Origin: an uncultured Phycisphaeraceae bacterium
GTDB lineage: Bacteria > Planctomycetota > Phycisphaerae > Phycisphaerales > UBA1924
NCBI GenBank assembly: GCA_964588585.1
Contig: CAZPPX010000009.1
Span: forward strand, 119,338 to 151,337
Direction of reading: 5' to 3'
Length of the DNA stretch: 32,000 nt
Shown: piece after piece, positions 4,952-22,236 of the stretch
Layout: each line of letters begins with the position of its first letter
How positions within the stretch are numbered: position 1 is the first letter of the stretch
Position numbers and translations under genes: made by a program
The notes under the pieces: model-generated
The model's database searches: none
What the model saw: the letters and a program-made list of their open reading frames with translations, nothing else
What the model was told of the DNA's origin: nothing

Positions 4952-7867
4952 TCATGGGGCTTTGCGCAGGGCGTCTTCGATGTCGGCAAGGTCCTGGTTC
5001 ACGCGGGCGGTTTCGGACTCGCGCACGGCGATGCTGGCGGCGACGAGGGCCTGGAAGGCCTCGCGGGAACGGGTGTAGTGGAGGCGGGCGCGGGCAAGGG
5101 CTTCGGTGCGCGTGGTGCCGGTGGCGGATTCGGCACCCAGTTTCTCTATCTCGCCCAGTTTGAAGAAGGCCACGGCGAGGTCGCGACGGTGCTGCTCGGT
5201 GGGGTCGGTGGCGAACAGGTCCTGGCGGATGGCGAGGGAGCGCTCGAAGGTGGCGAGGGCTTCAGCGCGCGAAGCGAGGTTCAGGCGTGAGAGATCGCGT
5301 TGCGTGTTGCCCAGTTTGTTCAGGACCAGCGCGAGTTCGCGCCGCGCGGAGAGGTTGGAGGCGTCGGCGGCGACGAGTTCCTCGGCCAGAGCCCGCGCGA
5401 GGGTGAACTTGGCGAGCGCGGCGCGGTAGTGGGAGGCGGCGGGGTAGTCGGGTGCGGGGGTGGGGGGTGTGCTGGGCGCGTCGGATGAGGCCGCGTCGCC
5501 CATGCGCATGAGGGCGTCGCCGGTGTTGTAGAGGGCGAGCATCTGCTCGCGGCGGAGGATGCCGCTTTGCGGGTGGGCGCCGTGCAGGCGTTCGAAGTCG
5601 AGGGCGGCGAGTTCGCCCAAGCGCACGGCTTCGCGGAGGGACGCGTCGGCGTCGCGCGCCAGGCGCGCGGCGTCATCGGCCTGACCGGCCTTGGTCGCGG
5701 CGCTCGCGGCGGCGGAGAGCGCGCGGCCCAGCGTGACGTGCGCGCGGGCGCGCTGGTCGGTCACGCGGCCCAGGCGGCGGACCGCGAGCCGATCGCCCAC
5801 GTCGGCGCGGAAGCGGTCGCGCCAGTAGGACTCGATTTCGCCGTAGGAAGCAAGGGCCTCGGCGATGAGGCCCGGGGCGCGCTCGGTGTCGCGGGCCGCG
5901 TCGGCGGCTTGCACGCGGGCCCACGCGGCGTCGGCCAGCGCCTCGATGCGCGATTGCCGGGCGCGCGTCTCGGTGGCGGGGAGCGTGGTGAGGGCACTGT
6001 CGATCAGCGCCACGGCTCGGTCATAGGTCGGGATGCTGTCGGTGGCTTTGCCCGAGCGCAGCAGGGCGTCGGCCGCGCGGCGGAGGCTCTCGGCCATCGC
6101 CAACTGGTTCGCGGGTTCGTTCGGGGCTTCGGCGATCAAAGTCTCGCGGATGGTGCGGGCACGGTCGTAGTGGGCGGCACCCTGCGCGGTGGTGCCGGTG
6201 CGGGGCAGATAGAGGCCGGCCTCGATGTCGCCCACGCGGTCGTGGGCTTCGGCCAGTTCGCGGCGAAGGGCCGGATCGAGCGCGGGCGGCTTGTCGGGGG
6301 TGACGCTGCCCGGTGCTTTCGCCGCGACGCGCAAGGCCTCGGCGGCGAGGCGTTCGAGCGACGCGCGGGCGGCGACGAGCAGGCGTTCGCGCACGGGCGT
6401 GGCCCCGCGCAGGTCTTCGAGGCCGTCGGCCAAGTCGCTCATGAACACGCGGGCCATGTTGCGGGAGGCGTCGAAGTTGGCGCGGGCGTGGTCGAGGGCC
6501 TCGGCCTTGGCGCGCGATTCGGCCTGGGTCTGCGCCAGTTGGTCGGCCAGTTGGTCTTTCAGGCCCGCCTCGCGCGTGTACATCAGGGCCATGACGCCCG
6601 CGAAGACGATGAGCAATGCGAGCGCCCCGATCGCTGCGGCGACGGGGCCGCGGTGGCGGCGCAGGTGCTTGCCGATGACGTACCACCCGCTGTCGCGTTT
6701 GGCTTCGATGGGCTCGCCGCGCAGATAGCGGTGCAGGTCGCGGGCGAGTTCGCCCGCGGACTGGTAGCGGCGCTCAGGCTCTTTCGCGAGGCATTTGAGG
6801 ACGATGGTTTCGACTTCGTTGTTGATCTGGCGGCGGACGGTGGAAGGCCGGGCGGGCTCGGCCTTGAGGATGTTGTCGAGCACGTCGCGCATCTGCCCGA
6901 TCACGGGATAGGGGAAGCGCCCCGTGAGCATCTGGTAGAGGATCACGCCCAGCGAGTAGACGTCGGTGCGGAGATCGACCTTGTCGGGCAGGCCCGAGGC
7001 CTGCTCGGGGCTGGCCCAGGGGAGGGAGCCCACGAACTGCCCGGTCATGGTCATGACGCGGGGGGTACGGGGATGTGTGCCAGAGCGTGTGGTTCCTTTG
7101 CCGCCTGCGGCTGCGTTGTTGCCGTTGCTGCCAGTGCTGGCGCTGTCGTCGGCACCGGCCGCGATCTTGGCCAGGCCGAAGTCCAGAATGTGCGGACGGC
7201 CGCCGGCATCCAGGCGGATGTTCGAGGGCTTGAGGTCGCGGTGGATCACGCCCCGCAGGTGCGCGGCACTCACGGCCTCGCAGATCTCGATGAAGAGGCG
7301 CAGGACTTGATCGATGGGCTTGGGCTCGGTGCCGATGAGCGCGTCGAGCGTGTGGCCCGAGACATAGTCCATCACGAAGTAGAAGGCACCCTCGAGCCCC
7401 AGGTCGCTGGCGGAGCGCTCGCCGGAGGGGGAGGAAGACGAGCCGGAGGCGAGCACACCCGAGTCGTGCACTTTCACGATGCCCGGGTGGTCGAGTCCCG
7501 CGAGGATGCGGACTTCGCGTTCGATGCGGGCGCGTTCGCGGTCGCCGGCGAGGGGCCCGCCGTGGATGACTTTGATGGCGACCTTGCGCTGCGTGGAGCG
7601 CTGCACGGCGAGATAGACCACGCCCTGTCCGCCGCGGTGCACTTCGCGGACGATTTCGTAACCCGGGATGGCGTCTTTGGGCAGGCCGCGGGCGCGCGGC
7701 GGGAAGAGTTCGCCAGCCGGCCGCGGGGAGGCCTGGCGGAGGGCCCCTTCGATCAGGGCGCGTTCGCGATCGGAACCGGAGCCGGTACCTGGAAGGGGGG
7801 TTGGCGTGGGGGTCGGCGAAGGCGTCGGCGTGGGGTCGGGGGTTGGATTGGGGGGCTGTTCGGACAC
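4952..7867 (-). CDS. membrane-anchored Ser/Thr protein kinase with a ~480-aa helical/TPR-like region after the TM segment
   Basis: Hanks motifs are present: GGQGVVY, VAIKVI, HRDLKPSNIRL, DFGLAK, ASPEQ. One TM helix (VAAAIGALALLIVFAGVMALMY). The tracked ORF starts with TTG at 7885. I prefer GTG at 7867, preceded by GGGAG; the start is uncertain by 18 nt. Confidence 0.9.
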   Translation of the reverse strand: MSEQPPNPTPDPTPTPSPTPTPTPLPGTGSGSDRERALIEGALRQASPRPAGELFPPRARGLPKDAIPGYEIVREVHRGGQGVVYLAVQRSTQRKVAIKVIHGGPLAGDRERARIEREVRILAGLDHPGIVKVHDSGVLASGSSSSPSGERSASDLGLEGAFYFVMDYVSGHTLDALIGTEPKPIDQVLRLFIEICEAVSAAHLRGVIHRDLKPSNIRLDAGGRPHILDFGLAKIAAGADDSASTGSNGNNAAAGGKGTTRSGTHPRTPRVMTMTGQFVGSLPWASPEQASGLPDKVDLRTDVYSLGVILYQMLTGRFPYPVIGQMRDVLDNILKAEPARPSTVRRQINNEVETIVLKCLAKEPERRYQSAGELARDLHRYLRGEPIEAKRDSGWYVIGKHLRRHRGPVAAAIGALALLIVFAGVMALMYTREAGLKDQLADQLAQTQAESRAKAEALDHARANFDASRNMARVFMSDLADGLEDLRGATPVRERLLVAARASLERLAAEALRVAAKAPGSVTPDKPPALDPALRRELAEAHDRVGDIEAGLYLPRTGTTAQGAAHYDRARTIRETLIAEAPNEPANQLAMAESLRRAADALLRSGKATDSIPTYDRAVALIDSALTTLPATETRARQSRIEALADAAWARVQAADAARDTERAPGLIAEALASYGEIESYWRDRFRADVGDRLAVRRLGRVTDQRARAHVTLGRALSAAASAATKAGQADDAARLARDADASLREAVRLGELAALDFERLHGAHPQSGILRREQMLALYNTGDALMRMGDAASSDAPSTPPTPAPDYPAASHYRAALAKFTLARALAEELVAADASNLSARRELALVLNKLGNTQRDLSRLNLASRAEALATFERSLAIRQDLFATDPTEQHRRDLAVAFFKLGEIEKLGAESATGTTRTEALARARLHYTRSREAFQALVAASIAVRESETARVNQDLADIEDALRKAP

Positions 7868-7909
7868 GCAAGGCTCCCGAACCAAGGCAACGGCGGAATG
7901 GCCGATTGC

Positions 7910-8551
7910 TCACGACCCCTGGGAAAAGAACTTGGAGTCAGAACCCATCAGTTCGGCCAGTTGTTCGTGGGCACGGGCGCGGAGCATGAACACAGCACCT
8001 TCCGAGCGGCCCATCTCGCGGGCCACCTCGCTGGCGGAGCGCCCGGCGAGGTCGTACTGGCGGATGACGCGCTCGTAATCTGGCGGCAGGCGCTTGAGGG
8101 CCAGGTCCATGAGGGCGGCGGCCTCGCCTCGGCCGACGACGCGGCTGGGCGTCGCGCCGCCGCTGGAGAGCATGTCGATGAGCGCGATGGCGGATTCCTC
8201 GGGGTTCCCGCCCTGGGCCACGCGCTTGCGCGGGTCGGGGCGCTTGGCGCTTTCCATGGCGCGCACGGCATCGATCAGGTTGTTTTCCGCCAGGCGCGAG
8301 AGCCAGTTGAGAAAGTCCTTAGGCCCGCCCGTGACGAAGCGGTCGAGTTTCAGCACCGCTTCGAGGTAGGTCGTCTGCATCACGTCGTCTTCGTCGAGCA
8401 CGGCCCGCCATGCGGGGCTGATCTTGGTGGCGATGCGCTGGCGGATGACGATGCCCAGTTCGCTCAGGAGCGTGGTGAGGGCCTCGGTGCCGCCGGGGCC
8501 GCCGGCGCGGGCGCGGCGGAGGAGTTCGTCGTGGCGAGGTTCAAAGTCCAT
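7910..8551 (-). CDS. ECF-type RNA polymerase sigma-70 family factor
   Basis: 213 aa from MDFEPRHDELLRRARAG... Region 2-like DEDDVMQTTYLEAV and region 4 HTH LAGRSASEVAREMGRSEGAVFMLRARA. The 111-aa N-terminal extension in the tracked ORF overlaps the divergent gene and has no sigma-like sequence. Confidence 0.85.
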   Translation of the reverse strand: MDFEPRHDELLRRARAGGPGGTEALTTLLSELGIVIRQRIATKISPAWRAVLDEDDVMQTTYLEAVLKLDRFVTGGPKDFLNWLSRLAENNLIDAVRAMESAKRPDPRKRVAQGGNPEESAIALIDMLSSGGATPSRVVGRGEAAALMDLALKRLPPDYERVIRQYDLAGRSASEVAREMGRSEGAVFMLRARAHEQLAELMGSDSKFFSQGS

Positions 8552-11319: not shown

Positions 11320-13095
11320 ATGGCCGCCAAGGAACTCGCGTTTGATGTGGATGCCCGCCAGTCGCTGTTTGCGGGGGTTGAGAAGTTGGCGCGGGCGGTG
11401 AAGGCCACGCTCGGGCCCCGCGGCCGCAACGCGGTCCTCGACAAGTCCTGGGGCGGGCCCACCGTGACCAAGGACGGCGTGACGGTCGCCGAGGAGATCG
11501 AACTCACCTGCAAGATCGAGAACATGGGGGCCCAACTGGTTAAGCAGGCCGCCAGCAAGACCAGCGACGACGCGGGCGACGGCACCACCACCGCCACCGT
11601 GCTCGCCGAGGCGCTCTTCCGTGAGGGTCTCAAGCACATCGCTGCGGGCTGCGATGCCAACGCGCTGGTTCGCGGCATGAAGAAGGCCGTGGAGGCCGCG
11701 TCGGCCGCGATCGAGAAGCAGGCCACGCCCGTCAGCGGCAACAAGGACATCGAGAACGTCGCCAGCATCTCGGCCAACAACGACTTCGAGATCGGCAAGA
11801 TCATGGCCAACGCCTTCGCCAAAGTCGGCAAGGACGGCGTCATCACCGTTGAAGAAGGCAAGACCGCCGAGACCGAAGTGACCGTGGTCGAAGGCATGCA
11901 GTTCGACCGCGGCTTCCTTTCGCCCAACTTCGTGACCAACGTCGAAGCCATGAAGTGCGAGTTCGACAAGGCCCTGGTCCTCATTCACGAGGACAAGATC
12001 GACAACGTGCAGAAACTCGTGCCGCTGCTCGAGAAGGTGATGCAGGCGAAGAAGCCGCTGCTGATTATCGCTGAAGACGTTACGGGCGAAGCCCTGGCGA
12101 CGCTGGTCATCAACAAACTGCGCGGCACGCTGCAGGTGTGTGCCGTGAAGGCCCCGGGTTATGGTGATCGCCGCAAGGCGATGCTGGAGGATATCGCGAT
12201 CCTCACCGGTGCCGAGGCAATCATGAAGGACACCGGCGCGGAACTCGAGAAGGTCGAACTGAAGCACCTGGGCATGGCCAAGAAACTCGAGGTCGATGCC
12301 GACAACACGACGATCATCGAGGGCGCGGGCAGCACCAAGGACATCCAGGCCCGCATCGAGCAGATCCGTCGCGAGATCGAGGCCACCTCCAGCGATTACG
12401 ACCGCGAGAAGGCCCAGGAGCGCCTCGCCAAGTTGTCCGGCGGGGTGGCCCAGGTGAAGGTCGGCGCGGCCAGCGAAGCCGAACTGAAAGAGAAGAAGGC
12501 CCGCGTCGAGGACGCGCTGCATGCCACCCGCGCCGCGGTCGCCGAGGGCGTGGTTCCCGGCGGTGGGACCAGTTTCATCCGCGCTCGCAAGGCGATCGAG
12601 GCCCTTCCCGAGTGGAAGATGGTCTACAGCAAGAAGGCCACCGCCGACGGCGATGTGACGTCCGAAGACATCGGCAGTTTCAAGTTTGACGCGGCCGCCG
12701 GCATGGACACGGTGCACAAGGCGCTGCTCGTGCCCCTCCAGACGATTGCCGACAACGCGGGCGACAAGGGCACCGTCGTGGTCGCCAAGGTCATCGAAGG
12801 CGGCGACGGCAAGGCCGGCGCATCCTTTGGCTACAACGCCCTCACCGGCGAATATGGCGACCTGCTCAAGCAGGGCGTGCTGACCCCGGCCAAGGTTGAC
12901 CGCACGGCACTCGTGAATGCCGCGAGCGTCGCGACGGTGCTGCTGACCAGCGACTGCGTGATCACCGACGCCCCGAAGGACGAAGACGAAGGCCACGGGC
13001 ACGACCACGGGCACGGCGGCGGTGGCATGGGCGGGATGGGCGGCGGGATGCCGGGCATGGGTGGAATGGGCGGCATGGGGGGAATGGGGTTCTGA
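11320..13095 (+). CDS. groEL: chaperonin GroEL, paralog 1 (591 aa; internal insertion and His-rich plus GGM C-terminal tail)
   Basis: [40 protein letters not shown]...[10 protein letters not shown]... is canonical GroEL. GGAG lies 9 nt upstream of the ATG. Tail [38 protein letters not shown]. Confidence 0.97.
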
Positions 13096-13341: not shown

Positions 13342-13605
13342 ATGACGCATGCTGACCTTCTCAATCGAATCACCGTCAACCCCGCGATTTTCGGCGGCAA
13401 GCCGATCATCCGCGGTCGTCGGCTGGCAGTTGAACATGTGCTGGGCATGCTCGCGGCGGGCGACACGCCCGAAGCGATCGTGGCCGCGTACCCGTGGCTT
13501 GAGCAGGAGGATGTTCGGGCGTGCCTGGTATACGCGCATCGTGTAGTCGGGCATGAACGGGTCGAGCCCGCCATCGATCAGGCGCAAGGAGGAAAAGCCG
13601 CGTGA
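13342..13605 (+). CDS. DUF433 family protein (putative antitoxin-like HTH)
   Basis: ITVNPAIFGGKPIIRGRRLAVEHVLGMLAAGDTPEAIVAAYPWLEQEDVRACLVYA matches the DUF433 signature GKPxIRGTRxxV...YPxLxxEDIxAxLxYA. Confidence 0.85.
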   Translation: MTHADLLNRITVNPAIFGGKPIIRGRRLAVEHVLGMLAAGDTPEAIVAAYPWLEQEDVRACLVYAHRVVGHERVEPAIDQAQGGKAA

Positions 13606-13952
13606 GGCTTCTCCTCGATTCGTGCATGTCTGGGCCGGTGGCCGTGTCGCTTCGCCAGGCTGGGCACGAGGTCGAATGGGCTGGCGATTGGCCGCGTGAT
13701 CCGGGTGATGAAAAGATTCTGAGGCGTGCATTCGTAGAGAAGCGTGTCTTGGTTACGCTGGATCGAGATTTTGGAGAACTCGCCGTTGTTCGAGGAGTTC
13801 TGCATCACGGGATTCTCAGAATTTCAGGTGTTTCCGTCAGTCATCATGCTGCGGCGTGCGAACGTGCCCTGAACAAATACGGAGCCGAGTTGGAATCAGG
13901 GGCGATCGTGACCGTGGAGCCGGGTCGAGTTCGCATACGACTGGACGAATGA
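13602..13952 (+). CDS. DUF5615 family PIN-like protein (putative toxin)
   Basis: MRLLLDSCMSGPVAVSLRQAGHEVEW...DEKILRRAFVEKRVLVTLDRDFGEL is typical of DUF5615. The GTG start overlaps the DUF433 stop (GTGA). Confidence 0.85.
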   Translation: MRLLLDSCMSGPVAVSLRQAGHEVEWAGDWPRDPGDEKILRRAFVEKRVLVTLDRDFGELAVVRGVLHHGILRISGVSVSHHAAACERALNKYGAELESGAIVTVEPGRVRIRLDE

Positions 13953-14260
13953 CGATGGTGAAGGCGAAGATCATGAAGAAGGACCCCAACAAGTACCCCA
14001 AGGGGTGGAATCGCGCGAAGGTTGAGGCGGTGATCCGCACCGCGACGAAGGCTTCGGCTGAGCAGCCGTCCGGACGTGACGAGGCGCTCGAAGACGCCCG
14101 CGACCTCGCGGCGTTTGACGAGGCGGTTCGCGAGAACGCCGGAAAGCCCCTCGTGCCTTGGGAAGATGTCAAACGCTCGCTCGGGCTGAACACGCGCGCA
14201 ACCCGTTCGTCTCGTCGCAAATCCGCACCTTCCAAATCCGGCAAGCGTCGCGCTGCCTGA
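13949..14260 (+). CDS. hypothetical 103-aa protein with a basic tail, possibly antitoxin-like
   Basis: The ATG overlaps the previous stop (ATGA). The segment DLAAFDEAVRENAGKPLVPWEDVKRSLGL resembles C-terminal segments of small antitoxin-type proteins (recalled from memory, not verified). Tail RSSRRKSAPSKSGKRRAA. Confidence 0.6.
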   Translation: MTMVKAKIMKKDPNKYPKGWNRAKVEAVIRTATKASAEQPSGRDEALEDARDLAAFDEAVRENAGKPLVPWEDVKRSLGLNTRATRSSRRKSAPSKSGKRRAA

Positions 14261-14286
14261 TTTGTCCACCTTCTACGGAGCATCTC

Positions 14287-14517
14287 ATGCCCTCAGCCAA
14301 AGACCTCTTCAACAAACTCGGCAACTCCGGCGGCGGCTTCAAGCCCGTCGCCAAGTCCGTCATTCCCAATGCCGCCGATTCCAAGGCCGACGCCAAGGCC
14401 GCTGTCAGCGGGCACAAGGCCACCGAGGCTTTGAAGGACGGCCCCAAGAAGGGCGGTGGAGGTGGTGCCGGCGGCGGTGGCGGCACCGTGCCCATCGGCG
14501 TGCGCCCCAAGGTCTGA
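14287..14517 (+). CDS. hypothetical 76-aa low-complexity protein with a poly-Gly run
   Basis: ATG at 14287 with GGAG 6 nt upstream. Sequence MPSAKDLFNKLGNSGGGFKP...KKGGGGGAGGGGGTVPIGVRPKV. High GC, unlike the preceding cassette. Confidence 0.5.
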   Translation: MPSAKDLFNKLGNSGGGFKPVAKSVIPNAADSKADAKAAVSGHKATEALKDGPKKGGGGGAGGGGGTVPIGVRPKV

Positions 14518-14530
14518 CCTGTTCCCCGCC

Positions 14531-14562
14531 CTGGGTACCTCGACTCTCCGAGTCGAGTCCCC
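14531..14562 (+). terminator. conserved hairpin element, copy 1 (TGGGTACCTCGAYTCTCCGARTCGAGTCCC)
   Basis: CTCGACTC-tcc-GAGTCGAG (14539-14557), 14 nt after the stop at 14517. A near-identical copy lies at 22660-22690. Confidence 0.5.
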
Positions 14563-14645
14563 GTTCCCGTCTTCTTTCCTTTCCTCCCTCTTCCTCCTCT
14601 TCCTCATCTTTCCGATCCTCCCCGTTTTCCTCCTTCTTTCTTCTC
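14558..14645 (+). repeat. ~88-nt polypyrimidine (CT-rich) tract
   Basis: Only about 6 purines occur in tccccgttcccgtcttctttcctttcctccctcttcctcctcttcctcatctttccgatcctccccgttttcctccttctttcttctc. Confidence 0.8.
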
Positions 14646-14678
14646 GGTGCTTCCTCGGTGTCTCTGTGCCTCGGTGGT
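14641..14678 (+). repeat. solo copy of the CTCGGTG-repeat arm
   Basis: ttctcggtgcttcctcggtgtctctgtgcctcggtggt matches 18397-18434 at 35 of 38 positions. It ends 9 nt before the dedA ATG. Confidence 0.7.
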
Positions 14679-14687
14679 TAGCCTCTT

Positions 14688-15368
14688 ATGCAGCAGATCC
14701 TCGACATCTTCCTGCACCTTGACCGTCACCTGGGCGAGTTGATCGCCCAGCACGGCGCGTGGGTGTACGCGATTGCCGCGGGGATCATCTTTGCCGAGAC
14801 GGGCTTGGTCGTGATGCCCTTCCTGCCCGGCGATTCGCTGCTGTTTGCCCTCGGCGCGTTCACGTCGTCGGACGGCGAAGCCACGCGGCTCAACCTGTGG
14901 GTGCTGCTCGGCACGCTCACGATTGCCGCGATCATCGGCGACGCGGTGAATTATCACGTCGGCAAGTACCTCGGCCCGCGCGTCTTCCGCGGCGAGGGCT
15001 TGGGCTTCTGGGGCAAACTGCTCAACCGCAAGCATCTCGACCGCGCCCACGCGTTCTACGACAAATACGGCGGCAAAGCCGTGGTGCTGGCGCGGTTCGT
15101 GCCCATCGTCCGCACGTTCGTCCCTTTCGTCGCGGGCGCGGGCGCGATGAACTACGGCAAGTTCGTCTTCTACAACATCGCCGGCGCCGTCGCCTGGGTC
15201 TTCATCTGCGTGCTCGCCGGCCACTGGTTCGGCAACATCCCCTGGGTGAAGAAGAACTTCGAAATCGTCGTCCTCGGCATCATCGTCGTCTCGATCATGC
15301 CCATCGTCGTGGAAGTCATCATGAGCCGCCGGAGCGCCAAGGTCGCGCCGGTCGCGCCGTCCGTCTGA
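14688..15368 (+). CDS. DedA family inner-membrane protein (VTT/SNARE-associated domain)
   Basis: FAETGLVVMPFLPGDSLLFALGAF, NYHVGKYLG and ARFVPIVRTFVPFVAGAGAMNY are typical DedA motifs. Confidence 0.9.
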   Translation: MQQILDIFLHLDRHLGELIAQHGAWVYAIAAGIIFAETGLVVMPFLPGDSLLFALGAFTSSDGEATRLNLWVLLGTLTIAAIIGDAVNYHVGKYLGPRVFRGEGLGFWGKLLNRKHLDRAHAFYDKYGGKAVVLARFVPIVRTFVPFVAGAGAMNYGKFVFYNIAGAVAWVFICVLAGHWFGNIPWVKKNFEIVVLGIIVVSIMPIVVEVIMSRRSAKVAPVAPSV

Positions 15369-15375
15369 ACTGTCT

Positions 15376-15415
15376 TCTTTGGCCATTTGGTCATCTGGCA
15401 ATTTGGTATTTGGAG
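15376..15415 (+). repeat. five 8-nt-periodic YTTGG units abutting the groES SD/ATG
   Basis: tctTTGGc caTTTGGt caTCTGGc aaTTTGGt atTTGGag. The last unit merges with the GGAG SD. Homologous to 20466-20503. Confidence 0.7.
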
Positions 15416-15421
15416 TAACCC

Positions 15422-15712
15422 ATGTCCATCAAGCCCCTCGAAGATCGCGTCCTTGTCAAGCCCATCGAAGCCGAGAGCAAGACCGCCTCGGGCATCTTCC
15501 TCCCCGAGTCGGCCAAGGAGAAGCCCGTCCGCGGCAAAGTCATCGCCGCCGGTCCGGGCAAACTGCTCGAAAACGGCAAGCGCGCCGAGATGAGCGTGAA
15601 GATCGGTTCCACGGTCGTCTACGGCAAGTACGCCGGCTCCGAAGTCGAACTCAAGGGTGAGAAGCACCTGATCATCAAGGAGAGCGAGCTCCTCGGCGTC
15701 ATTGAGGGCTGA
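15422..15712 (+). CDS. groES: co-chaperonin GroES
   Basis: MSIKPLEDRVLVKPIEAESKTASGIFLPESAKEKPVRGKVIAAGPG... is canonical Cpn10. Confidence 0.97.
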   Translation: MSIKPLEDRVLVKPIEAESKTASGIFLPESAKEKPVRGKVIAAGPGKLLENGKRAEMSVKIGSTVVYGKYAGSEVELKGEKHLIIKESELLGVIEG

Positions 15713-15759
15713 GGCATAGGCACTAGGCATCAGGCACTGGGCACTGGGCACTAGCAGAA
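15713..15759 (+). repeat. left arm: six tandem heptamers GCAYYRG
   Basis: GGCATAG GCACTAG GCATCAG GCACTGG GCACTGG GCACTAG cagaa, starting directly after the groES stop. Confidence 0.85.
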
Positions 15760-15763
15760 TGAT

Positions 15764-16138
15764 ATGAGTGACATTCACTCACATCGCGACTTGCTTGTCT
15801 GGCAGAAAGCCGTCGATCTCGCGCTTGAGATCTACGCAATCTGCCGCAGCCTACCCGAGTCTGAACGATTTGGGTTGATTGCCCAGTTGCGCCGCGCCGC
15901 CGTGTCCGTGGCCAGCAACATCGCTGAGGGTTATGGTCGTGGCAGCACGGCGGATTACATCCGCTTCCTGCGCGCGGCACGCGGTTCGCTCTACGAGATC
16001 GATACGCAGTTGCTCATCGCCTGTCGGCTCGAGTACGTGCAGCAGAGCGCGTATGAGGCCGTTCTCAAGCACGTCAATGAAGTCGGACGAATGCTCGCCG
16101 GCCTGATTCGCACGCTCGAACAAGGTTCGAAATCCTGA
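15764..16138 (+). CDS. four-helix-bundle protein (23S rRNA intervening-sequence protein family)
   Basis: HRDLLVWQKAVDLALEIY...LPESERFGLIAQLRRAAVSVASNIAEGYGRGSTADYIRFLRAARGSLYEIDTQLLIA matches the family signature. GC is visibly lower than in the neighbouring genes. Confidence 0.9.
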   Translation: MSDIHSHRDLLVWQKAVDLALEIYAICRSLPESERFGLIAQLRRAAVSVASNIAEGYGRGSTADYIRFLRAARGSLYEIDTQLLIACRLEYVQQSAYEAVLKHVNEVGRMLAGLIRTLEQGSKS

Positions 16139-16170
16139 CCACACCACCGCACGGGAATGGACGCCAGGCC

Positions 16171-16203
16171 TTCTGCTAGTGCCTAGTGCCCAGTGCCCAG
16201 TGC
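16171..16203 (+). repeat. right arm: inverted heptamer array
   Basis: ttctg CTAGTGC CTAGTGC CCAGTGC CCAGTGC is the reverse complement of the left arm with one extra unit. It ends 17 nt before the groEL2 ATG. Confidence 0.85.
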
Positions 16204-16220
16204 CTCTCCGAGGTATCCCC

Positions 16221-17834
16221 ATGTCTGCCAAACAACTCATGTTCAACGATGCCGCCCTCCTCGAAATGAAGAAGGGCGTGGCCCAACTGGCTCGCGCTGT
16301 CAAGGTCACCATGGGCCCTTCCGCCCGTCATGTGGCTATTCAGAAGTCCTACGGCGGGCCCTCCATCTCCAACGACGGCGTCTCGGTCTCGAAAGAGATC
16401 ACCCTCCCCGAGCCCTTTGAATCCATGGGCGCGAAGATGGTCACCGAGGTCGCCAAAAAGACCAACGACGAAGCCGGCGACGGCACCACCGCCGCCACCG
16501 TGCTCGCCGAGGCCATCTTCACCGAAGGCCTGCGCCACGTGGCCGCCGGGGCCAACCCCGTGCTGATCCAGCGCGGCATCAACGGCGCGGCCCAGGCCGC
16601 GGCCGAAGCCCTCGACGCCATGGCCGTGAAGTGCAAGGGCAAGGCCGATTACGTCAAGGTCGCCACGGTCTCCGCGTCGCACGACGCGAAGATCGGCGAA
16701 CTGATCGCCGAGGCAATCACTAAGGTCGGTGCCGAGGGCGTGGTCGAGGTCGAAGAGGGCAAGGCCGCCGAAACCACGCTCGAATACGTCGAGGGCATGG
16801 CGTTCGACAAGGGGTACATCAGCCCCTACTTCATGACCGACCCGAAGACCACCGAGTGCGTGCTCGAAGATTGCTACGTCCTGCTCTACGAGAAGAAGAT
16901 CGCCAACCTCGCGGACTTCCTCCCGTTCCTGAACAAGATCGCGACCACCGGCAAGCCCCTGCTGGTTGTTGCTGAGGAAGTCGAGAGCGAGGCGCTTGCC
17001 GCGCTCGTCGTGAACCGCCTCCGCGGCGTGCTCAAGATCTGCGCCGTGAAGGCCCCGGGCTTCGGCGATCGCCGCAAGGCCATCATGGGCGATGTGGCCG
17101 TGCTCACCGCCGGCACGTTCTTCAGCGAGGACCTGGGCCGCAGCCTCGAATCGATCGAACTGGGCGAACTCGGCCGTGCCAAGAAGGTCGTTATCAACAA
17201 GGACGAGACGACCATCATCGAGGGCGCAGGCAAGAAGGGCGACATCGAGGCCCGTGCCGCCCAGATCAAGGCCCAGCACGACAAGAGCACCAGCGACTAC
17301 GACCGCGAGAAGTTCAACGAGCGCCTTGCCAAACTCACCGGCGGCGTCGCCATCATCAACGTCGGCGGCCTCTCCGAAGTCGCCATGAAGGAGAAGAAGG
17401 ACGCCGTCGACGACGCCCTGAACTCCACCCGTCACGCGGCCAAGTCCGGCTACGTTCCCGGTGGCGGCGTGGCGCTCATCCGCACCCAGCCCGCGATCGA
17501 GAAGGCCATGGGCAAGGCCAGGGGCGACGAGAAACTGGGCTACGAGATCGTCTCCGCTGCGGTCGAGGCCTGCGCCAAGCAGATCGCCGTGAACGCCGGC
17601 CAGGATGGCGACATCGTGGTCGAAAAGATCAAGGAGGGCACCGGCGGTTTCGGCTACAACGCCCAGTCCCACGAGTACACCGACCTGGTGAAGGCCGGCA
17701 TCATCGACGCGGCCACGGTCCCCAGGACGGCCCTGCTCAACGCCGCCAGCGTCGCGGGCCTCATGCTGACCACCAGCGTGATGATCGCGGAACTGAAGGA
17801 TAAGGCCCAGCCGGTGACGGGCGCGGTGGCGTGA
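16221..17834 (+). CDS. groEL: chaperonin GroEL, paralog 2 (537 aa, no GGM tail)
   Basis: MSAKQLMFNDAALLEMKKGVAQLARAVKVTMGPSARHVAI...DGTTAATVLA... Ends ...AELKDKAQPVTGAVA. Confidence 0.97.
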   Translation: MSAKQLMFNDAALLEMKKGVAQLARAVKVTMGPSARHVAIQKSYGGPSISNDGVSVSKEITLPEPFESMGAKMVTEVAKKTNDEAGDGTTAATVLAEAIFTEGLRHVAAGANPVLIQRGINGAAQAAAEALDAMAVKCKGKADYVKVATVSASHDAKIGELIAEAITKVGAEGVVEVEEGKAAETTLEYVEGMAFDKGYISPYFMTDPKTTECVLEDCYVLLYEKKIANLADFLPFLNKIATTGKPLLVVAEEVESEALAALVVNRLRGVLKICAVKAPGFGDRRKAIMGDVAVLTAGTFFSEDLGRSLESIELGELGRAKKVVINKDETTIIEGAGKKGDIEARAAQIKAQHDKSTSDYDREKFNERLAKLTGGVAIINVGGLSEVAMKEKKDAVDDALNSTRHAAKSGYVPGGGVALIRTQPAIEKAMGKARGDEKLGYEIVSAAVEACAKQIAVNAGQDGDIVVEKIKEGTGGFGYNAQSHEYTDLVKAGIIDAATVPRTALLNAASVAGLMLTTSVMIAELKDKAQPVTGAVA

Positions 17835-17852
17835 GCCCTTCGAGAAGATTTA

Positions 17853-17904
17853 CCACCGAGACACCGAGACACCGAGACACCGAGACACCGAGGGAGCACC
17901 GAGG
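17853..17904 (+). repeat. left arm: tandem octamers CACCGAGA
   Basis: c CACCGAGA x4, CACCGAGG, gag, CACCGAGG, starting 19 nt after the groEL2 stop. Confidence 0.9.
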
Positions 17905-17954
17905 TGTAAGAGAGTTGTTATACAGGCTGTTGGGATTGCTCCTGCCAGCCTGCT

Positions 17955-18362
17955 TTGAGGACCGCAGCACCCATTTTGGCGGCCAATGTTGAGGGCCACG
18001 ACCCGCTGACCGAATCAATCATCGGCGCGGCGATCGATGTGCATCGCGCGCTGGGGCCGGGGTTGCTTGAATCGGCGTACGAGGAATGTCTCGCGATCTC
18101 CATGCGTACGCGCGGATTGGACGTGGCGCGGCAGGTCGAACTGCCGATCGAGTTCATGGGGCACACGATCAAGCCCGCTTACCGCCTTGACATGTTGGTG
18201 AACCAGCAAGTCGTGATGGAGATCAAGGCCGTGGAGGCGCTCCAGCCGATCCACGAGGTTCAACTGCTTACCTACCTGCGACTCTCCTGCAAGCGTATCG
18301 GCCTCCTTATCAACTTCTGTGTTCCGATCCTCAAAGACGGCATCCGCCGACGTGTCGTTTAG
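17955..18362 (+). CDS. GxxExxY family protein (PD-(D/E)XK nuclease-like fold)
   Basis: ESIIGAAIDVHRALGPGLLESAYEECLAISM...YRLDMLVNQQVVMEIKAV...QLLTYLRLSCKRIGLLINF carries the GxxExxY motif as GLLESAY. There is no ATG; the start is TTG at 17955 or 17976. Confidence 0.85.
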   Translation: MRTAAPILAANVEGHDPLTESIIGAAIDVHRALGPGLLESAYEECLAISMRTRGLDVARQVELPIEFMGHTIKPAYRLDMLVNQQVVMEIKAVEALQPIHEVQLLTYLRLSCKRIGLLINFCVPILKDGIRRRVV

Positions 18363-18397
18363 GCCTGTGTGTCCGGCCTTTTGTTCTCCCTCTCTCT

Positions 18398-18433
18398 TCT
18401 CGGTGCTCCCTCGGTGTCTCGGTGTCTCGGTGG
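18398..18433 (+). repeat. right arm: inverted octamer array
   Basis: 18399-18432 is the perfect reverse complement of 17870-17903 (34 nt). It ends 20 nt before the dnaJ ATG. Confidence 0.9.
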
Positions 18434-18453
18434 TTCTGCCTTGGTGAAGTCTT

Positions 18454-19605
18454 ATGCCCTCAACCCGCGACTACTACGAAATCCTGGGCGTCGACAAGAA
18501 AGCCGACGCGGAGGAGATCAAGCGCGCCTATCGCCGGGCCGCGATGAAGCACCATCCCGACCGCAACCCGGGCGACGCGGAGGCCGAGCGGGCGTTCAAA
18601 GAAGCCGCTGAGGCGTACGAAGTCCTCGCCGACGAGCAGAAGCGCAAGGTCTACGACCAGTACGGGCGCGAGGGCCTGAAGTCCGCCGCCGCCGGGCCCG
18701 CGGCGCACGACTTCTCGCGCATGAACGTCGAAGACATCTTCTCGATCTTCGGCGACATCTTCGGCAATGGTGCAGGTGGCGGTCAGCGCCGCGGCGGCCA
18801 TCGCGGCCCGCCCCGCGGGTACGACCTCGAAACCGAAGTGGCCATTACGCTCGAAGAAGTGCTCAGCGGCTGCGAGCGCGAGGTGGAGTTCACGCGGCTC
18901 GATGTCTGCGAAAAATGCACCGGCTCGGGCGCGAAGGAAGGCTCCAAGCCCGTCTCGTGCCCGCACTGCGGCGGCCAGGGCAAGGTGCAACAGACCGGCC
19001 TCGGTGGCATGTTCCGCATGGTCACCGCCTGCCCCGCCTGCCGCGGACGCGGGAAGGTCATCAAGGAGTTCTGCTCCGCCTGCCGTGGCAAAGGCCGCGT
19101 CGCCAAGCAGCGCACGATTGCCGTGCGCATCCCGCCGGGTATCCACGATGGCCAACCGATCCGGGTGAAGGGCGAGGGCGAGCCGCCGGTGCCCGAGGAA
19201 TCGCCCGCGGGCGAGGGCATCCGGGGCGACCTGCACGTCGTGGTGCGCGTGCGCGAGCACAACCATTTTCAGCGCGAGCAGGATCACTTGCTGCTCGAAG
19301 TACCCGTGTCGTTCGCAAAAGCCGCGCTGGGTGGAGAGATCGATATCCCCACGCTCGAAGGCGGCCGGGAAAAACTCGCCGTGCCCCGCGGCACCCAGCA
19401 CGGCACCATCCTCCGCATCCCCGCCAAGGGCCTGCCCGACCTTCGCACGCAACGCCGCGGTGACCTGGTGATCGGCGTAAAGATCGAGATTCCCACCAGC
19501 CTGTCGAAAGAGCAGGAAAAACTCCTCCGCGAGTTCGCCGCGGGCGAGAACGAATCAGTGATGCCCGAGAGCCAAGGGTTTTGGAAAAAGGTCTTCGGCG
19601 GCTGA
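18454..19605 (+). CDS. dnaJ: molecular chaperone DnaJ (type I, with Zn-finger domain)
   Basis: J-domain DYYEILGV...HHPDRNPGD, a G/F region, and four CxxCxGxG repeats ([32 protein letters not shown]). Confidence 0.95.
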
Positions 19606-19617
19606 GCAACGCGTGCC

Positions 19618-19792
19618 TCCACCACCCTCCCCCGCTCCCAGCGGGGGAGGCGGCATTTGGGGGGCGAGGCTTTGCGAGTGACGGAGGGGGGATTGGGTGA
19701 CGGCAGATGATCGCGACGCACATGCATCCAACGAGAGCCCCCTCCGCCTCACTCCGCTCGGCACCTCCCCCGCTGGGAGCGGGGGAGGGTGG
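19618..19792. repeat. composite inverted pair of REP-like hairpins (CCACCCTCCCCCGCT family), MITE-like
   Basis: CCTCCCCCGCT-ccc-AGCGGGGGAGG (19626-19650) and CCTCCCCCGCT-ggg-AGCGGGGGAGG (19764-19788) are mutually inverted. Further imperfect complementarity links GAGTGACGGAGGGGG (19676-19690) with CCCCCTCCGCCTCACTC (19738-19754). Confidence 0.6.
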
Positions 19793-19861
19793 TAAGACGA
19801 AACCGACAGCCTTCCACTCCTATGGTGAATTGAAACGATCGAAACTTCCCGAGCAGCAACC

Positions 19862-20464
19862 ATGGATTTCTTCAAACCCAAGCCCAAGCCAGAGCAGCCC
19901 GCCGCCAGCGAACCCGCCGCACCCGCCGCGTCCGCCGAACACGCCGAAACCGCAGACGCTTCCCGCACGGTCGACGAAACCGCGGCGGAGTTTGAGCGGC
20001 TGGACGCCGAGATCGTCAAACTGCGCGCTGAGCGCGATGAAGCCATCGACGCGCACAAGCGCGCCCTCGCCGATTTCCAGAACTACCAGCGCCGCGCCCA
20101 CCAGAACGAGCGCGACGCACGCGAACAGGCCGTCCGTGGCGTGCTGAGCAACATCCTCTCTGTGGTTGACCACTTCGACATGGCCTTGGGCCAGGACCCG
20201 ACCAAGACCACCGCCGCGGCGATCATCAGTGGCGTGACCATGATCAAGGAAGAACTCCTCGGCGCCCTCACGCAGCACGGCGTCGGACTCATCCGCCCCC
20301 AACCCGGCGACACCTTCGACGCCACGCGCCACGAAGCCGTCTTCCAGCAACCCGCCGAGGGCATCGCCCCCGGCCATGTCTCCGCCCTCATGCGCATCGG
20401 CTACACGGTCAATGAACGCGTCGTCCGCCCCGCCCAAGTCGCCGTCGCCCCCGCCGCAGATTGA
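19862..20464 (+). CDS. grpE: nucleotide exchange factor GrpE
   Basis: ALADFQNYQRRAHQNERDAREQAV...VVDHFDMAL...GYTVNERVVRPAQV. Confidence 0.93.
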   Translation: MDFFKPKPKPEQPAASEPAAPAASAEHAETADASRTVDETAAEFERLDAEIVKLRAERDEAIDAHKRALADFQNYQRRAHQNERDAREQAVRGVLSNILSVVDHFDMALGQDPTKTTAAAIISGVTMIKEELLGALTQHGVGLIRPQPGDTFDATRHEAVFQQPAEGIAPGHVSALMRIGYTVNERVVRPAQVAVAPAAD

Positions 20465-20473
20465 ATCCGTCTT

Positions 20474-20503
20474 CATTTGGCCATTTGGCCATTTGGCCAT
20501 TTG
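20474..20503 (+). repeat. 3.75 tandem octamers CATTTGGC abutting a start codon
   Basis: CATTTGGC CATTTGGC CATTTGGC CATTTG, then aac and the ATG. Confidence 0.85.
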
Positions 20504-20506
20504 AAC

Positions 20507-20866
20507 ATGCCCACCTACGAATACAAGTGCAAAGCCTGTGATCACCGGTTCGAGCAGTTCCAGTCGATGACCGCCGCGCCGATCAAGGTCTGTCCGGAGT
20601 GCAAGAAACGTAAGGTTGAAAGGCTCATCGGCACCGGTGCCGCGCTGCTGTTCAAGGGTTCGGGTTTCTACACCACCGACTATCGCTCCGACGGCTACAA
20701 AAAGAAGGCCGAGGCCGACAAGCCCGCTTCCGACGCCAAGCCATCGACCGATTCCAAGCCCGCAGCGCCTGAGGCGAAACCCGCAGCACCCGTCGAAACC
20801 AAACCGGCACCGAAGCCCGAGACGACAGATCGCTCAAAGTCGGACAAGAGCCCGAAAAAACGCTAA
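20507..20866 (+). CDS. FmdB-family zinc-ribbon protein with a Lys/Pro/Ala-rich tail
   Basis: MPTYEYKCKACDHRFEQFQSM...VCPECKKRKVERLI has the CxxC...CxxC signature. The tail contains KKKAEADKPASDAKPSTDSKPAAPEAKP... Confidence 0.85.
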   Translation: MPTYEYKCKACDHRFEQFQSMTAAPIKVCPECKKRKVERLIGTGAALLFKGSGFYTTDYRSDGYKKKAEADKPASDAKPSTDSKPAAPEAKPAAPVETKPAPKPETTDRSKSDKSPKKR

Positions 20867-20885
20867 CCATGCACGCGGGCATAAA

Positions 20886-20920
20886 CCACCCTCCCCCGCT
20901 CCCAGAGCGGGGGAGGGTGG
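20886..20920 (+). terminator. REP-like hairpin, copy 3
   Basis: CCACCCTCCCCCGCT-cccag-AGCGGGGGAGGGTGG forms a 15-bp stem, 20 nt after the stop at 20866. No U-tract. Confidence 0.55.
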
Positions 20921-20964
20921 TGTTGAGAGTCAGCGCACGCGAACACCTCACCCTAAACTCCACC

Positions 20965-22236
20965 ATGACCGCCATCTCGCCCACACTTCACCAACCCGCC
21001 CCATCCCCCGGCGCTGTCGAGCCCAAGGCGATCACCGTCGAGGGCGTGCGTTCCGCGCGGCTGGCCGGCCTGCCGCCCTTCCTCTTCAACGCCATCGACG
21101 ACAAGAAACGCGCCGCCATCGCGGCTGGTAAAGACGTCATCAACCTGGGCGTGGGCGACCCTGACCAGCCGACACCCGTTTTCATCATCGAAGCGATGGA
21201 CCGCGAAACCCGCGTTCCCGTTAACCACCAATATCCCGACTGCTACGGCACCAAGCGATTCCTCGAAGCCGCCGCTTCGTTCATGCAGCGCCGCTTCGGC
21301 GTGAAAGTCGATCCTCGCCGCCACGTCGTCGCGCTCATGGGCAGCAAAGACGGCATCGGTCACCTGCCCCTGGGCGTGGTCAACCCGGGTCAAAGTGTCA
21401 CCGTCTTCACGCCCGCCTACCCGGTGTATGCCGCGGGGGCCGTGATGGCCGGCGCACATGTCGAGCGCGTGGAAACGCGGCCCGAGGATCACTGGCTCCC
21501 ACGCTTCGATCGCCTCTCGCCCACCGCCGCGTCCAGCCGGTTGATGTGGCTGAACTTCCCGGGCAACCCGACGGGTGCCGCGGGCAGCGTGGCCCTGCTC
21601 GATGAAGCCGTGCGGTTCGCGGCGGGTCGGAACATGGTGCTCGCCAGCGACCTTGCCTACAGCGAGTTGTATCTTGATGGTGACGCCAACTCCTGCCCCA
21701 GCCTGTGGCAGGCCCCATCCGCGAACATCGAGCGGACCTGCGCCATCGAGTTCCATTCGCTCAGCAAGACCTTCAACATGACCGGCTGGCGCATCGCCTT
21801 TGCGGTGGGGCACGAGGCGGTGATCGGCGCGCTCAAGCAGACCAAGGACAACTACGACAGCGGGCCCTTCAACGCCGTGCAGAACGCCGGCGCGGTGGCG
21901 CTTGACCGCTTCGAAGACCCCGCGATCGAATCGATGCGTCAGGCGTATCGCCAGCGCCGCGAGATCGTGGTGGCGGGCCTTCGCGCCATCGGGTGCGAGG
22001 TCGAGCCGCCCCGTGCGGGGATTTTCGTCTGGGCCCGCTGCCCGATCGACAAGAACACCGGCCACGCGATGGATTCCTGGGCCTTTGCCGGCCGCCTGAT
22101 CGAAGAACTGGGCGTGGTCACCGTGCCCGGCGCGGGCTTTGCCGATGCGGCCCGCGGCTGGGTCCGCGTGTCGCTCACGCGCGAGACCCATCGCATCGAG
22201 GAAGCCATGCGCCGTTTGGCCGGGATGAAGTGGTAA
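20965..22236 (+). CDS. dapL: class I/II PLP aminotransferase, LL-diaminopimelate aminotransferase (DapL)-like
   Basis: LPPFLFNAIDDKKRAAIAAGKDVINLGVGDPDQPTP, NHQYPDCYGTKRF, GSKDGIGH, and the PLP-Lys motif SLSKTFNMTGWRIAF. Start set at ATG 20965, because the upstream 32 codons only translate the REP hairpin. Confidence 0.85.
   Translation: MTAISPTLHQPAPSPGAVEPKAITVEGVRSARLAGLPPFLFNAIDDKKRAAIAAGKDVINLGVGDPDQPTPVFIIEAMDRETRVPVNHQYPDCYGTKRFLEAAASFMQRRFGVKVDPRRHVVALMGSKDGIGHLPLGVVNPGQSVTVFTPAYPVYAAGAVMAGAHVERVETRPEDHWLPRFDRLSPTAASSRLMWLNFPGNPTGAAGSVALLDEAVRFAAGRNMVLASDLAYSELYLDGDANSCPSLWQAPSANIERTCAIEFHSLSKTFNMTGWRIAFAVGHEAVIGALKQTKDNYDSGPFNAVQNAGAVALDRFEDPAIESMRQAYRQRREIVVAGLRAIGCEVEPPRAGIFVWARCPIDKNTGHAMDSWAFAGRLIEELGVVTVPGAGFADAARGWVRVSLTRETHRIEEAMRRLAGMKW

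Follow-up and report, generated by a model that had tools for sequence, protein, structure and literature searches.

A GxxExxY gene and its inverted octamer arrays as a cassette in the groEL2-dnaJ spacer of a planctomycete and in operons of other bacteria

Between the chaperone genes groEL2 and dnaJ of an uncultured Phycisphaeraceae bacterium (Planctomycetota) lies a small cassette: a gene of the GxxExxY family, bracketed by two inverted arrays of tandem octamers. The cassette occupies positions 17854-18432 of a 32,000-nucleotide stretch of DNA (contig CAZPPX010000009.1, positions 119,338 to 151,337 of the forward strand), the whole of which is called the window here. It is, with near certainty, one copy of a conserved unit composed of a GxxExxY gene and inverted CRCNGAG octamer arrays, and to judge from the loci surveyed, this gene-plus-arms unit is a widespread element in operons of many unrelated bacteria. 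Comparison of the genomes shows gene and arms as one inherited unit, which sits in sense orientation in operons and is either lost whole or decays to a hairpin.

In the 5' arm the units follow each other as CACCGAGA x4 (17854, 17862, 17870 and 17878), CACCGAGG (17886), GAG and again CACCGAGG (17897-17904); bases 17853 and 17852 are outside the unit array and only lengthen the pairing. The preliminary description of this DNA had the array begin 19 nt past the groEL2 stop, which is right, and at base 17853, which is one base too early; it had also put the 3' arm close to the dnaJ ATG, where it is, with a gap of 20 nt that is in fact 21. Its perfect 34-nt pairing stands on recheck: 17870-17903 and the reverse complement of 18399-18432 agree at 34/34 positions. 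If mismatches are allowed, the inverted repeat reaches 43 nt at 91% (17870-17912 with 18390-18432), and, with six units in the 5' arm against four in the 3' arm, further perfect registers exist, such as 17852-17876 with 18410-18434. The motif CRCNGAGNCRCNGAG occurs 8 times in the window where 0.07 would be expected. As had also been described, the loop (495 nt) contains a lone GxxExxY ORF (open reading frame) without an ATG: the sole family-matching ORF runs from a TTG at 17955 or 17976 to 18362, and loop and ORF have a lower G+C fraction (0.59-0.60) than the flanking groEL (0.65) and dnaJ (0.67). Pyrimidine tracts like that of the cassette tail are present in three related loci (L001, L002 and L004).

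The assignment of the ORF to the GxxExxY / PD-(D/E)XK proteins, made at first from the letters, is upheld by profile matches to TIGR04256 (E 2e-41, 140.8 bits against a cut-off of 35, profile positions 2-115 of 116) and PF13366 (PDDEXK_3; E 2e-40, 138.1 bits against a cut-off of 22), which are its only family matches. The N-terminal G-x-x-E-x-x-Y is present as G29 L L E32 S A Y35; in an alignment of 31 homologues (A1), G29 and E32 are invariant and Y35 is conserved in at least 90%. The same alignment has G27-P-G-L-L-E32-S, D72, E82 and K84 as invariant residues, the last three of which sit on the predicted strands E63-75 and E79-84 in the pattern of the D...(D/E)-x-K motif. An AlphaFold2 model (predicted local distance difference test score, pLDDT, 90.3) has a minimal PD-(D/E)XK core with the alpha-beta-beta-beta-alpha-beta fold. 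The best PDB match found by Foldseek is Cas4 SSO0001 (E 7e-4, probability 1.0); other near folds are lambda exonuclease and (tRNA-)splicing endonucleases. TM-scores for all of these, Cas4 included, are only 0.4-0.5, and a search of the PDB by sequence gave no relative. The modelled fold thus suggests a nuclease, and its generic PD-(D/E)XK neighbours point to no substrate. No family of the PADLOC defence library is matched by this ORF, nor by the PF05635 ORF of a sister cassette upstream of groEL2. Against syntenic orthologues, the ratio of nonsynonymous to synonymous substitution rates (dN/dS) is 0.11-0.26 at a dS above 1, where synonymous sites are saturated, so the protein has been kept over a long period. 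About a dozen proteins of a representative library (P0121-P0132, 266-295 aa) carry two GxxExxY domains in tandem and may be fused adjacent cassettes.

The unit in other genomes

A profile of the 31 GxxExxY proteins retrieved 80 loci from unrelated metagenomes, with proteins 49-61% identical to that of the window. Bracketing was scored as an ungapped inverted repeat (+1/-2, threshold at least 15), and the upstream flank of one locus was paired with the downstream flank of another as a control. Bracketing repeats reach the threshold in 45/78 loci, compared with 7% of the flank-swap controls. Together with the relatives, CRCNGAG arrays are found within 250 nt of 82 of 85 GxxExxY genes (0.013 expected per locus), and 57 of the 85 loci have the strict order 5' arm, ORF, 3' arm. 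The arms are a median 31 nt long and a median 413 nt apart; the modal arm has three units (3+3), and the 6+4 of the window is the largest array pair among the 85. One motif family covers all bracketing arms: 56 elements anchored at the outer unit have the consensus ends 5'-TTTCAC/CRCNGAGR ... YCTCNGYG/GTGAAA-3', in which the slash marks the edge of the array and the units repeat n times. The family as a whole is very large, with 20,358 clusters at 50% identity (E <= 1e-3).

Complementarity of the arms is maintained as their sequences change. In the anchored alignment, 22 of the 26 stem pairs change on both sides, and the covariation score of 0.58 is reached by none of 500 shuffles, which score 0.21, nor by slid partners, which do not exceed 0.24; the loci were picked by stem score, which inflates the percentage of paired cells but not the two-sided changes. 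By this measure, arm pairing is under selection.

Finished genomes of cultured bacteria contain the same architecture. In Bacteroides finegoldii, TTCACCACAGAGG...ORF...CCTCTGTGGTGAA stands between radA and the gene of an FAD protein; in Sphingomonas parapaucimobilis, TTCACGCGAAGG...ORF...CTTCGCGTGAA stands between fabD and fabG-acpP-fabF; in Bernardetia, the cassette separates ade from a mannose-1-phosphate guanylyltransferase gene. All three copies lie between co-directional housekeeping genes, and the upstream neighbour is co-oriented in 43/49 metagenomic loci and in every annotated example. Because the arm motif is conserved across unrelated sites, the arms travel with the gene and do not come from the target site. 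This rules out target-site-derived arms, one of three options that the preliminary description had offered; RNase III substrates and DNA recombination sites, the other two, are both candidate readings. Its broader claim of a general mechanism rather than a one-off duplication fares well, given the unit in 82/85 loci and in cultured genomes of several phyla, and given the PF05635 genes, which are bracketed by inverted tandem 6-8-mers in 8/10 sampled replicons. The arms that it had proposed to look for at other copies are there.

The closest public homologues of the ORF are from Phycisphaerae metagenome-assembled genomes (MAGs); more relatives were added from a DnaJ-anchored scan, with one genome per species. 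The gene order groEL1 ... VTT-groES-groEL2-dnaJ-grpE-Zn-ribbon is conserved across Planctomycetota, and the two spacers that flank groEL2 range from 28 nt to 3.3 kb among relatives. At the groEL-dnaJ site, L001 and L002 have the GxxExxY gene between CACNGAG / CTCNGTG arms homologous to those of the window, and the cassette is present in L004 too, which is more distant. Across these three and the window, ORF identity (63-77%) tracks groEL identity (73-89%), and the arms retain motif and complementarity over an orthologue divergence with dS above 1. L003 belongs to the same clade (groEL 88%) and has a groEL-dnaJ gap of just 28 nt, a clean empty site with no arm remnants, of the kind that a comparison of spacers had been expected to reveal. 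In this clade, as the comparison shows, the cassette is old and has passed mostly by vertical descent. The public GxxExxY gene call of L001 (5251-5793) is 180 aa long. Since no stop codon interrupts the frame in arm and leader, the call runs back into the end of groEL; translation probably begins at the TTG at 5407. In L002, the 3' arm and pyrimidine tract are duplicated in tandem (3709-3844; 68 nt x2, 79% identity), so that the single 5' arm has two alternative partners.

Hairpins of other types and other genes occupy the same spacers. Between groEL and dnaJ, L008 has a 214-nt ORF-less hairpin of GGCACT type (7787-8000), and in L004 (2547-3158) the left ~85 nt of that same hairpin is joined to a complete GxxExxY cassette with its own arms. 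It follows that hairpin modules nest or abut, and that arm type follows the ORF, not the site. A PF05635 cassette is common to the groES-groEL spacers of the window, L004 and L008 (57-64% identity); in its place L001-L003 have short spacers, that of L002 being an ORF-less hairpin of AGCGACG octamers. Other ORFs of these spacers encode Macro (L006, with only a left GGCACTG array), Fic and Cys-rich CPCC (L010) and DUF1508 (L011) proteins, and those around groEL2 in L005, L007 and L009 belong to no assigned family. A 3.3-kb insert with three sulfotransferase-like ORFs lies between groES and groEL of L007. Such variety marks the chaperone operon as an insertion hot spot. Over 326 kb of Phycisphaerae sequence, no strong inverted repeat with tandem-periodic arms lies outside the two groEL2 spacers. 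This confinement excludes, for this lineage, an origin from generic intergenic REPs (repetitive extragenic palindromes), the alternative that the first reading had put up against itself.

The unit also decays in a recognisable way. Mini hairpins with a gap below 150 nt make up 24 of 92 adjacent 5'arm-3'arm pairs, and some occur in tandem series (L138, L095, L159) or beside a full gene (Gemmatirosa L166). A blast of mini loops against full elements gave mostly self-matches, since the search window overlapped the minis, and L159 alone was informative, as confirmed by alignment. Its three units share arms and inter-unit spacer; two of them are minis, whose loops still hold ~24 nt from the beginning of the ORF and 17-58 nt from its end, 93% identical to the full copy next to them. 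Minis thus derive from full copies by internal deletion, and arms outlive the gene. By the same derivation, the ORF-less hairpins of the Phycisphaerae spacers, and a solo array at 14643-14676 of the window, are most simply relics. Repeats that enclose no ORF, which had been named as a possible objection, do exist, as deletion derivatives of full cassettes.

PF05635 cassettes and other repeats of the window

On its other side, groEL2 is flanked by a cassette of the same build (Table 1), as the preliminary description had recognised, and the arms and ORF families of the two are indeed unrelated. The ORF of this sister cassette belongs to PF05635, the family of proteins named after 23S rRNA intervening sequences (IVSs). 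Ten further PF05635 genes were sampled from plasmids or chromids of six cyanobacterial genera, Gemmatirosa, Azospirillum and Riemerella. Wherever the upstream gene is annotated, it is co-oriented, and the contexts include cas6-X-cas4, cas10-X-cmr3 and AAA ATPase-X-parB. Each of the eight bracketed genes has its own arm unit: GGGCAGGA, GGGTGTA, AAGGGAA, AGGAGATA, GGACAGAG, AAGGTTC, GGAGATN or AAAAGCT. The GGGTGTA heptamers bracket the cassette of Calothrix, and in Pseudanabaena very long AAAAGCT / AAAAGCC arrays stand on both sides. The plasmids of Pseudanabaena (L171) and Picosynechococcus (L173) carry their cassettes inside CRISPR-Cas operons (cas6-X-cas4 and cas10-X-cmr3).

Table 1. Coordinates of the two cassettes, their neighbours and a solo array in the window
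Feature	Position	Strand	Remarks
groEL2	16221-17834	+	upstream host gene, same direction as cassette; TIGR02348, E 3e-215; stop codon 17832-17834
Gap, groEL2 stop to 5' arm	17835-17853	+	19 nt
5' arm	17854-17912	+	six CACCGAG(A/G) octamer units, then a purine-rich inner extension; pairs with 18390-18432
Leader, 5' arm to ORF start	17913-17975	+	alternative TTG start at 17955
GxxExxY gene	17976-18362	+	128 aa; TTG start (per public record P0001), TAG stop
Pyrimidine-rich tail, stop codon to 3' arm	18363-18389	+	inner part pairs with the purine-rich extension of the 5' arm
3' arm	18390-18432	+	four CTCGGTG units, at 18399, 18410, 18418 and 18426
Gap, 3' arm to dnaJ ATG	18433-18453	+	21 nt
dnaJ	18454-19605	+	downstream host gene, same direction as cassette; TIGR02349, E 4e-122; ATG at 18454
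Sister cassette, groES-groEL2 spacer	15713-16215	+	PF05635 / TIGR02436 four-helix-bundle ORF in heptamer arms
Sister 5' arm	15713-15759	+	(GGCAYYN)n; paired part 15725-15759
Sister ORF	15764-16138	+	PF05635 '23S rRNA-intervening sequence protein' / TIGR02436
Sister 3' arm	16171-16205	+	inverted partner of GGCAYYN type
Solo array of 3'-arm type	14643-14676	+	CTCGGTG, CTCGGTG, CTCTGTG, CTCGGTG; ends 11 nt before the VTT/DedA ATG

The solo array is preceded by a polypyrimidine tract from about 14560 and has no 5' partner; it is probably the right half of a lost GxxExxY-type cassette. Two further kinds of repeat are found nearby. Arrays of CATTTGGN x4 lie on the same strand immediately before the groES and Zn-ribbon start codons (15384-15413 and 20474-20504; 5 motif matches against 0.01 expected), without an inverted partner; a similar array precedes groES in L002, and a related unit occurs in the groES-groEL hairpin of L005. 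A 30-nt hairpin-forming element (ACCACCCTCCCCCGCTCCCAGCGGGGGAGG), which is REP-like and not of the tandem-unit type, has copies at 19621-19650, 19764-19793 and 20885-20922: the first two face each other in the dnaJ-grpE spacer as a perfect inverted pair, and the last stands downstream of the Zn-ribbon gene. Upstream, a second groEL paralogue (11320-12969, 47% identity to groEL2) is conserved in relatives. Rfam found no relevant family and no rRNA over 13500-21500, with only a spurious microRNA and a small RNA match at the REP-like repeat near 20875, and the window has 0 matches at up to 3 mismatches to the HrcA operator CIRCE (TTAGCACTC-N9-GAGTGCTAA).

Stem, nuclease substrate or host hairpin

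By analogy with the IVSs of 23S rRNA, the cassette can be read as an intercistronic counterpart, with a stem that is processed or insulates its neighbours; for this mechanism as a whole the chances appear about even. The cassette, with neither promoter nor terminator of its own, would be transcribed within the groES-groEL2-dnaJ-grpE message. As the arm unit is not self-complementary, an arm is predicted to remain unfolded until the other has been made, whereupon the two would zip into a duplex of 34-43 bp, loop out the ~500-nt insert and bring the 3' end of groEL2 beside the 5' leader of dnaJ. Long perfect RNA duplexes of this kind are what RNase III classically cleaves, and a cut in the stem, as in 23S IVSs, would free the cassette RNA and leave the host cistrons separated or insulated. 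Over evolutionary time the unit is, as the comparison of loci shows, lost cleanly or reduced by internal deletion to ORF-less hairpins that keep their arms. More speculatively, the encoded nuclease would be functional, and its action on the arm arrays is probably what spreads or preserves the unit.

Structure prediction is consistent with such a stem. The spacer RNA forms the long-range stem in both the minimum free energy (MFE) and the centroid structure (z = -7.6), and a single arm folded alone has nearly no self-structure. In both predicted structures the 7 nt directly upstream of the dnaJ ATG are paired with 17845-17851, lengthening the stem base to within a nucleotide of that codon; cleavage or unwinding would therefore matter for dnaJ expression. 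In relatives, the downstream GGAG/GAGG of the groEL spacers stands directly behind the 3' arm. No intrinsic terminator (a short GC-rich hairpin with a U-tract) is present on the + strand in 14300-20000. Co-transcription with the operon and formation of the RNA stem would both fit these data. The 5' arm is purine-rich, a feature that separates only L..R from R..L order, as an inverted repeat reads alike on both strands.

Several observations weigh against this account. Arm mismatches have no significant bias towards RNA pairing, with 68 G-T/T-G and 51 A-C/C-A (p = 0.14), and each arm unit has an invariant C, C, A and G, which is conservation beyond the needs of pairing and suggests that a protein recognises the arms, perhaps as DNA. 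In several loci, L138 and L166 among them, the gene stands beside complete mini hairpins, not inside one, an arrangement that fits a relation of nuclease and substrate better than insulation alone. An rRNA gene was found around none of the 40 GxxExxY loci sampled. The search for promoters in 14300-20000 was confined to the sigma-70-type consensus; that it found none there, and no + strand terminator-like site, says little in a planctomycete. Four distant members (33-39% identity; Persicobacter, Prevotella, Treponema and Fusobacteria) have no tandem-unit inverted arms, so the architecture defines a large subfamily and not necessarily all of PF13366. Three of them (L177, L178 and L180, from Persicobacter, Prevotella and Fusobacteria) have flanking direct repeats of ~50-65 nt that contain tandem heptamers, and the Treponema member has just an 11-nt inverted repeat. 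The direct repeat of the Fusobacteria member takes in the leader of the downstream gene.

The lack of a significant mismatch bias, the conservation in excess of pairing and the genes beside hairpins make a relation at the DNA level the main rival. The unit would then be a selfish element that is copied or moved because its nuclease binds or cuts the flanking octamer arrays, whether these are duplex, cruciform or single-stranded hairpin DNA, much as RAYTs (REP-associated tyrosine transposases) are paired with REPINs (REP doublets forming hairpins) or as free-standing homing endonuclease genes behave; the RNA stem would be a by-product. In its favour are the invariant catalytic residues, purifying selection on the ORF, conservation of arm sequence across phyla, the very large family, non-autonomous deletion derivatives in tandem with full copies and presence/absence polymorphism at one site (L003). 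Other findings speak against it. No direct repeat that could be a target-site duplication lies outside the arms in the window or the 56-element alignment, where the flanks merely continue the inverted symmetry TTTCAC/GTGAAA, and near-identical dispersed copies were not seen. The Phycisphaerae cassette stayed at one site while it diverged to 63-77% identity, which speaks for vertical descent rather than recent mobility, and the inter-unit spacer shared by the L159 copies indicates local tandem duplication rather than transposition. Moreover, PF05635 cassettes have the same architecture and encode no nuclease, the family is absent from the PADLOC library, and its structural neighbours are only generic. 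A DNA-level element is possible but rather doubtful; it is compatible with parts of the IVS-type explanation, to which it may be complementary.

An improbable alternative is a translational switch, in which GGAG/GAGG of the 5' arm serves as the ribosome-binding site of the cassette and the 3' arm masks it as an anti-Shine-Dalgarno sequence, throttling a potentially harmful nuclease. It would account for the order of the arms, with the G- or purine-rich one first and the pyrimidine-rich one second (57 L-ORF-R loci versus 3 R-ORF-L), a polarity shared by all bracketed PF05635 examples, and for the start codon at a median of 10 nt past the arm end. GGAG/GAGG is present in many units, and AGGAGATA, the arm unit of Picosynechococcus, reads as a textbook Shine-Dalgarno sequence. 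The ORF of the window, on the other hand, starts 43-64 nt past its arm and with TTG, many units (CACAGAGA, CACCGAGA) match the Shine-Dalgarno sequence poorly, and Planctomycetota and Bacteroidota make little use of such pairing. Nor does a switch explain why arms are retained where the ORF has gone.

The hairpin might instead be owned by the host, as a native processing or stability stem with a tolerant loop in which small ORFs have landed. ORF-less tandem-unit hairpins in the same spacers (L002 groES-groEL, L008 groEL-dnaJ, L005 and L010), the assorted Macro, Fic, CPCC and DUF1508 ORFs and the confinement of such repeats to these two spacers in Phycisphaerae would all suit a resident structure. 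For the GxxExxY arms this is largely refuted and quite improbable: CRCNGAG arms follow the gene into unrelated operons of unrelated phyla, the L004 cassette has its own arms although it abuts a GGCACT-type hairpin, the L003 site is empty of any hairpin, and the ORF-less hairpins of L159 are deletion relics. Chance similarity or misassembly of a metagenome-derived contig, suggested at most by the relatives being MAGs, is already excluded by the 34/34 pairing and the motif count (8 against 0.07), by a cassette at the identical site in three independent assemblies and by the architecture in finished genomes of cultured bacteria.

A wider form of the IVS-type explanation would join the two gene families. 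GxxExxY and PF05635 mini-genes, each with its own inverted tandem 7-8-mer arrays, would form one phylum-spanning class of hairpin cassettes that colonises highly expressed transcripts (rRNA, as IVSs; the spacers of housekeeping and CRISPR-Cas operons), with a nuclease that recognises the CRCNGAG array and drives spread or maintenance; the tandem heptamers known from cyanobacteria and xanthomonads would for the most part derive from such cassettes, as arms or as relics. This proposal is tentative and falls short of an even chance, although it has some plausibility. Two very large families of no assigned function (GxxExxY, with ~20,000 clusters, and PF05635) usually appear as discrete cassettes with a defined nucleic-acid structure, and both gain a testable context: a specific nuclease substrate and a specific RNA-processing prediction. 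The idea of the intervening sequence is extended from rRNA to ordinary mRNA operons, and a possible origin is offered for the tandem heptamer and octamer repeats of cyanobacteria and Xanthomonas. For annotation, arms mark cassette boundaries, and the 180-aa call in L001 is one of the over-long ORF predictions that they explain. Finally, inserts of 0.5 kb, if bracketed by a long stem, are tolerated in central operons for chaperones, fatty-acid synthesis and CRISPR-Cas.

Comparison with described systems

Known mobile or structured elements share some features with the cassette and differ in others. Integron cassettes are promoterless small ORFs, as the present cassette is predicted to be, and likewise co-directional; they are expressed from an upstream promoter and associated with a structured recombination site. 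In integrons this site follows the ORF, whereas the repeats here bracket it, and the cassette has no attC-like core sites and no integrase among the identified genes next to it. MITEs (miniature inverted-repeat transposable elements) and insertion sequences (ISs) likewise have terminal inverted repeats and non-autonomous derivatives by internal deletion, but the present cassette has no transposase and its arms are tandem arrays.

The free-standing homing endonuclease genes of T-even phages are small nuclease genes wedged between conserved co-directional genes, with presence/absence polymorphism among relatives, as seen for the cassette, and a reliance on host transcription, as predicted for it. 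Long inverted arms are not a feature of theirs, and the cassette is ancient and stable at its site; to our knowledge, cleavage of an empty allele by a GxxExxY cassette is not known. The likeness to RAYTs and their REPs or REPINs is threefold: (i) a single small gene for a nucleic-acid enzyme is flanked by inverted copies of a short repeat, (ii) the same repeat forms ORF-less hairpin doublets (57/85 loci bracketed here, and 24/92 mini pairs), and (iii) the repeat type is specific to the gene lineage. The cassette enzyme, however, has a PD-(D/E)XK fold and not that of a Y1/HUH transposase, the arms are tandem octamer arrays where those of RAYTs are single palindromes, and the cassette lies inside operons, with no dispersed hairpin population in the 32-kb window.

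No description of the gene-plus-arms unit, or of IVS-type cassettes in mRNA operons, was found in the accessible literature, with most subscription journals and the database family notes outside it. The closest described entities are the 23S rRNA IVSs and a set of unexplained tandem heptamer repeats. The IVSs of Coxiella, Leptospira, Salmonella and others are inserts of ~430-500 nt in highly expressed transcripts, each with a terminal stem of ~28-35 bp and a loop that holds a small ORF. The IVS of Coxiella has 428-444 nt, a 28-bp stem and a PF05635 ORF in its loop, and its 5' stem consists of tandem GACAGAT heptamers in strain-variable copy number, with RNase III cleavage at the first repeat (PMC4990558). 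To these the window offers a stem well above 20 bp (34 bp perfect, 43 bp at 91%) and, in the sister cassette, the IVS ORF family PF05635 itself. The differences are as follows: an IVS sits in helix 25 or 45 of 23S rRNA and the cassette in an mRNA spacer between groEL2 and dnaJ; the cassette encodes a PF13366 nuclease fold and not the S23p / PF05635 four-helix bundle; its arm motif is conserved across phyla; and the ORFs here are under purifying selection, whereas that of Coxiella is decaying. Excision by RNase III has been demonstrated for IVSs and is predicted for the cassette.

The second group comprises the short tandemly repeated repetitive (STRR) sequences of cyanobacteria, the GGGAATC repeats of Xanthomonas and the GGGGAYT repeats of Nostoc, which are tandem 7-nt units in intergenic or intercistronic positions and often form convergent inverted pairs. 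They have been described purely as repeats, with a G-quadruplex or no assigned function, and without a link to an enclosed ORF; Xanthomonas has 70-75 convergent pairs of GGGAATC arrays, one of them near groES, for which no ORF link was drawn (PMC4692102).

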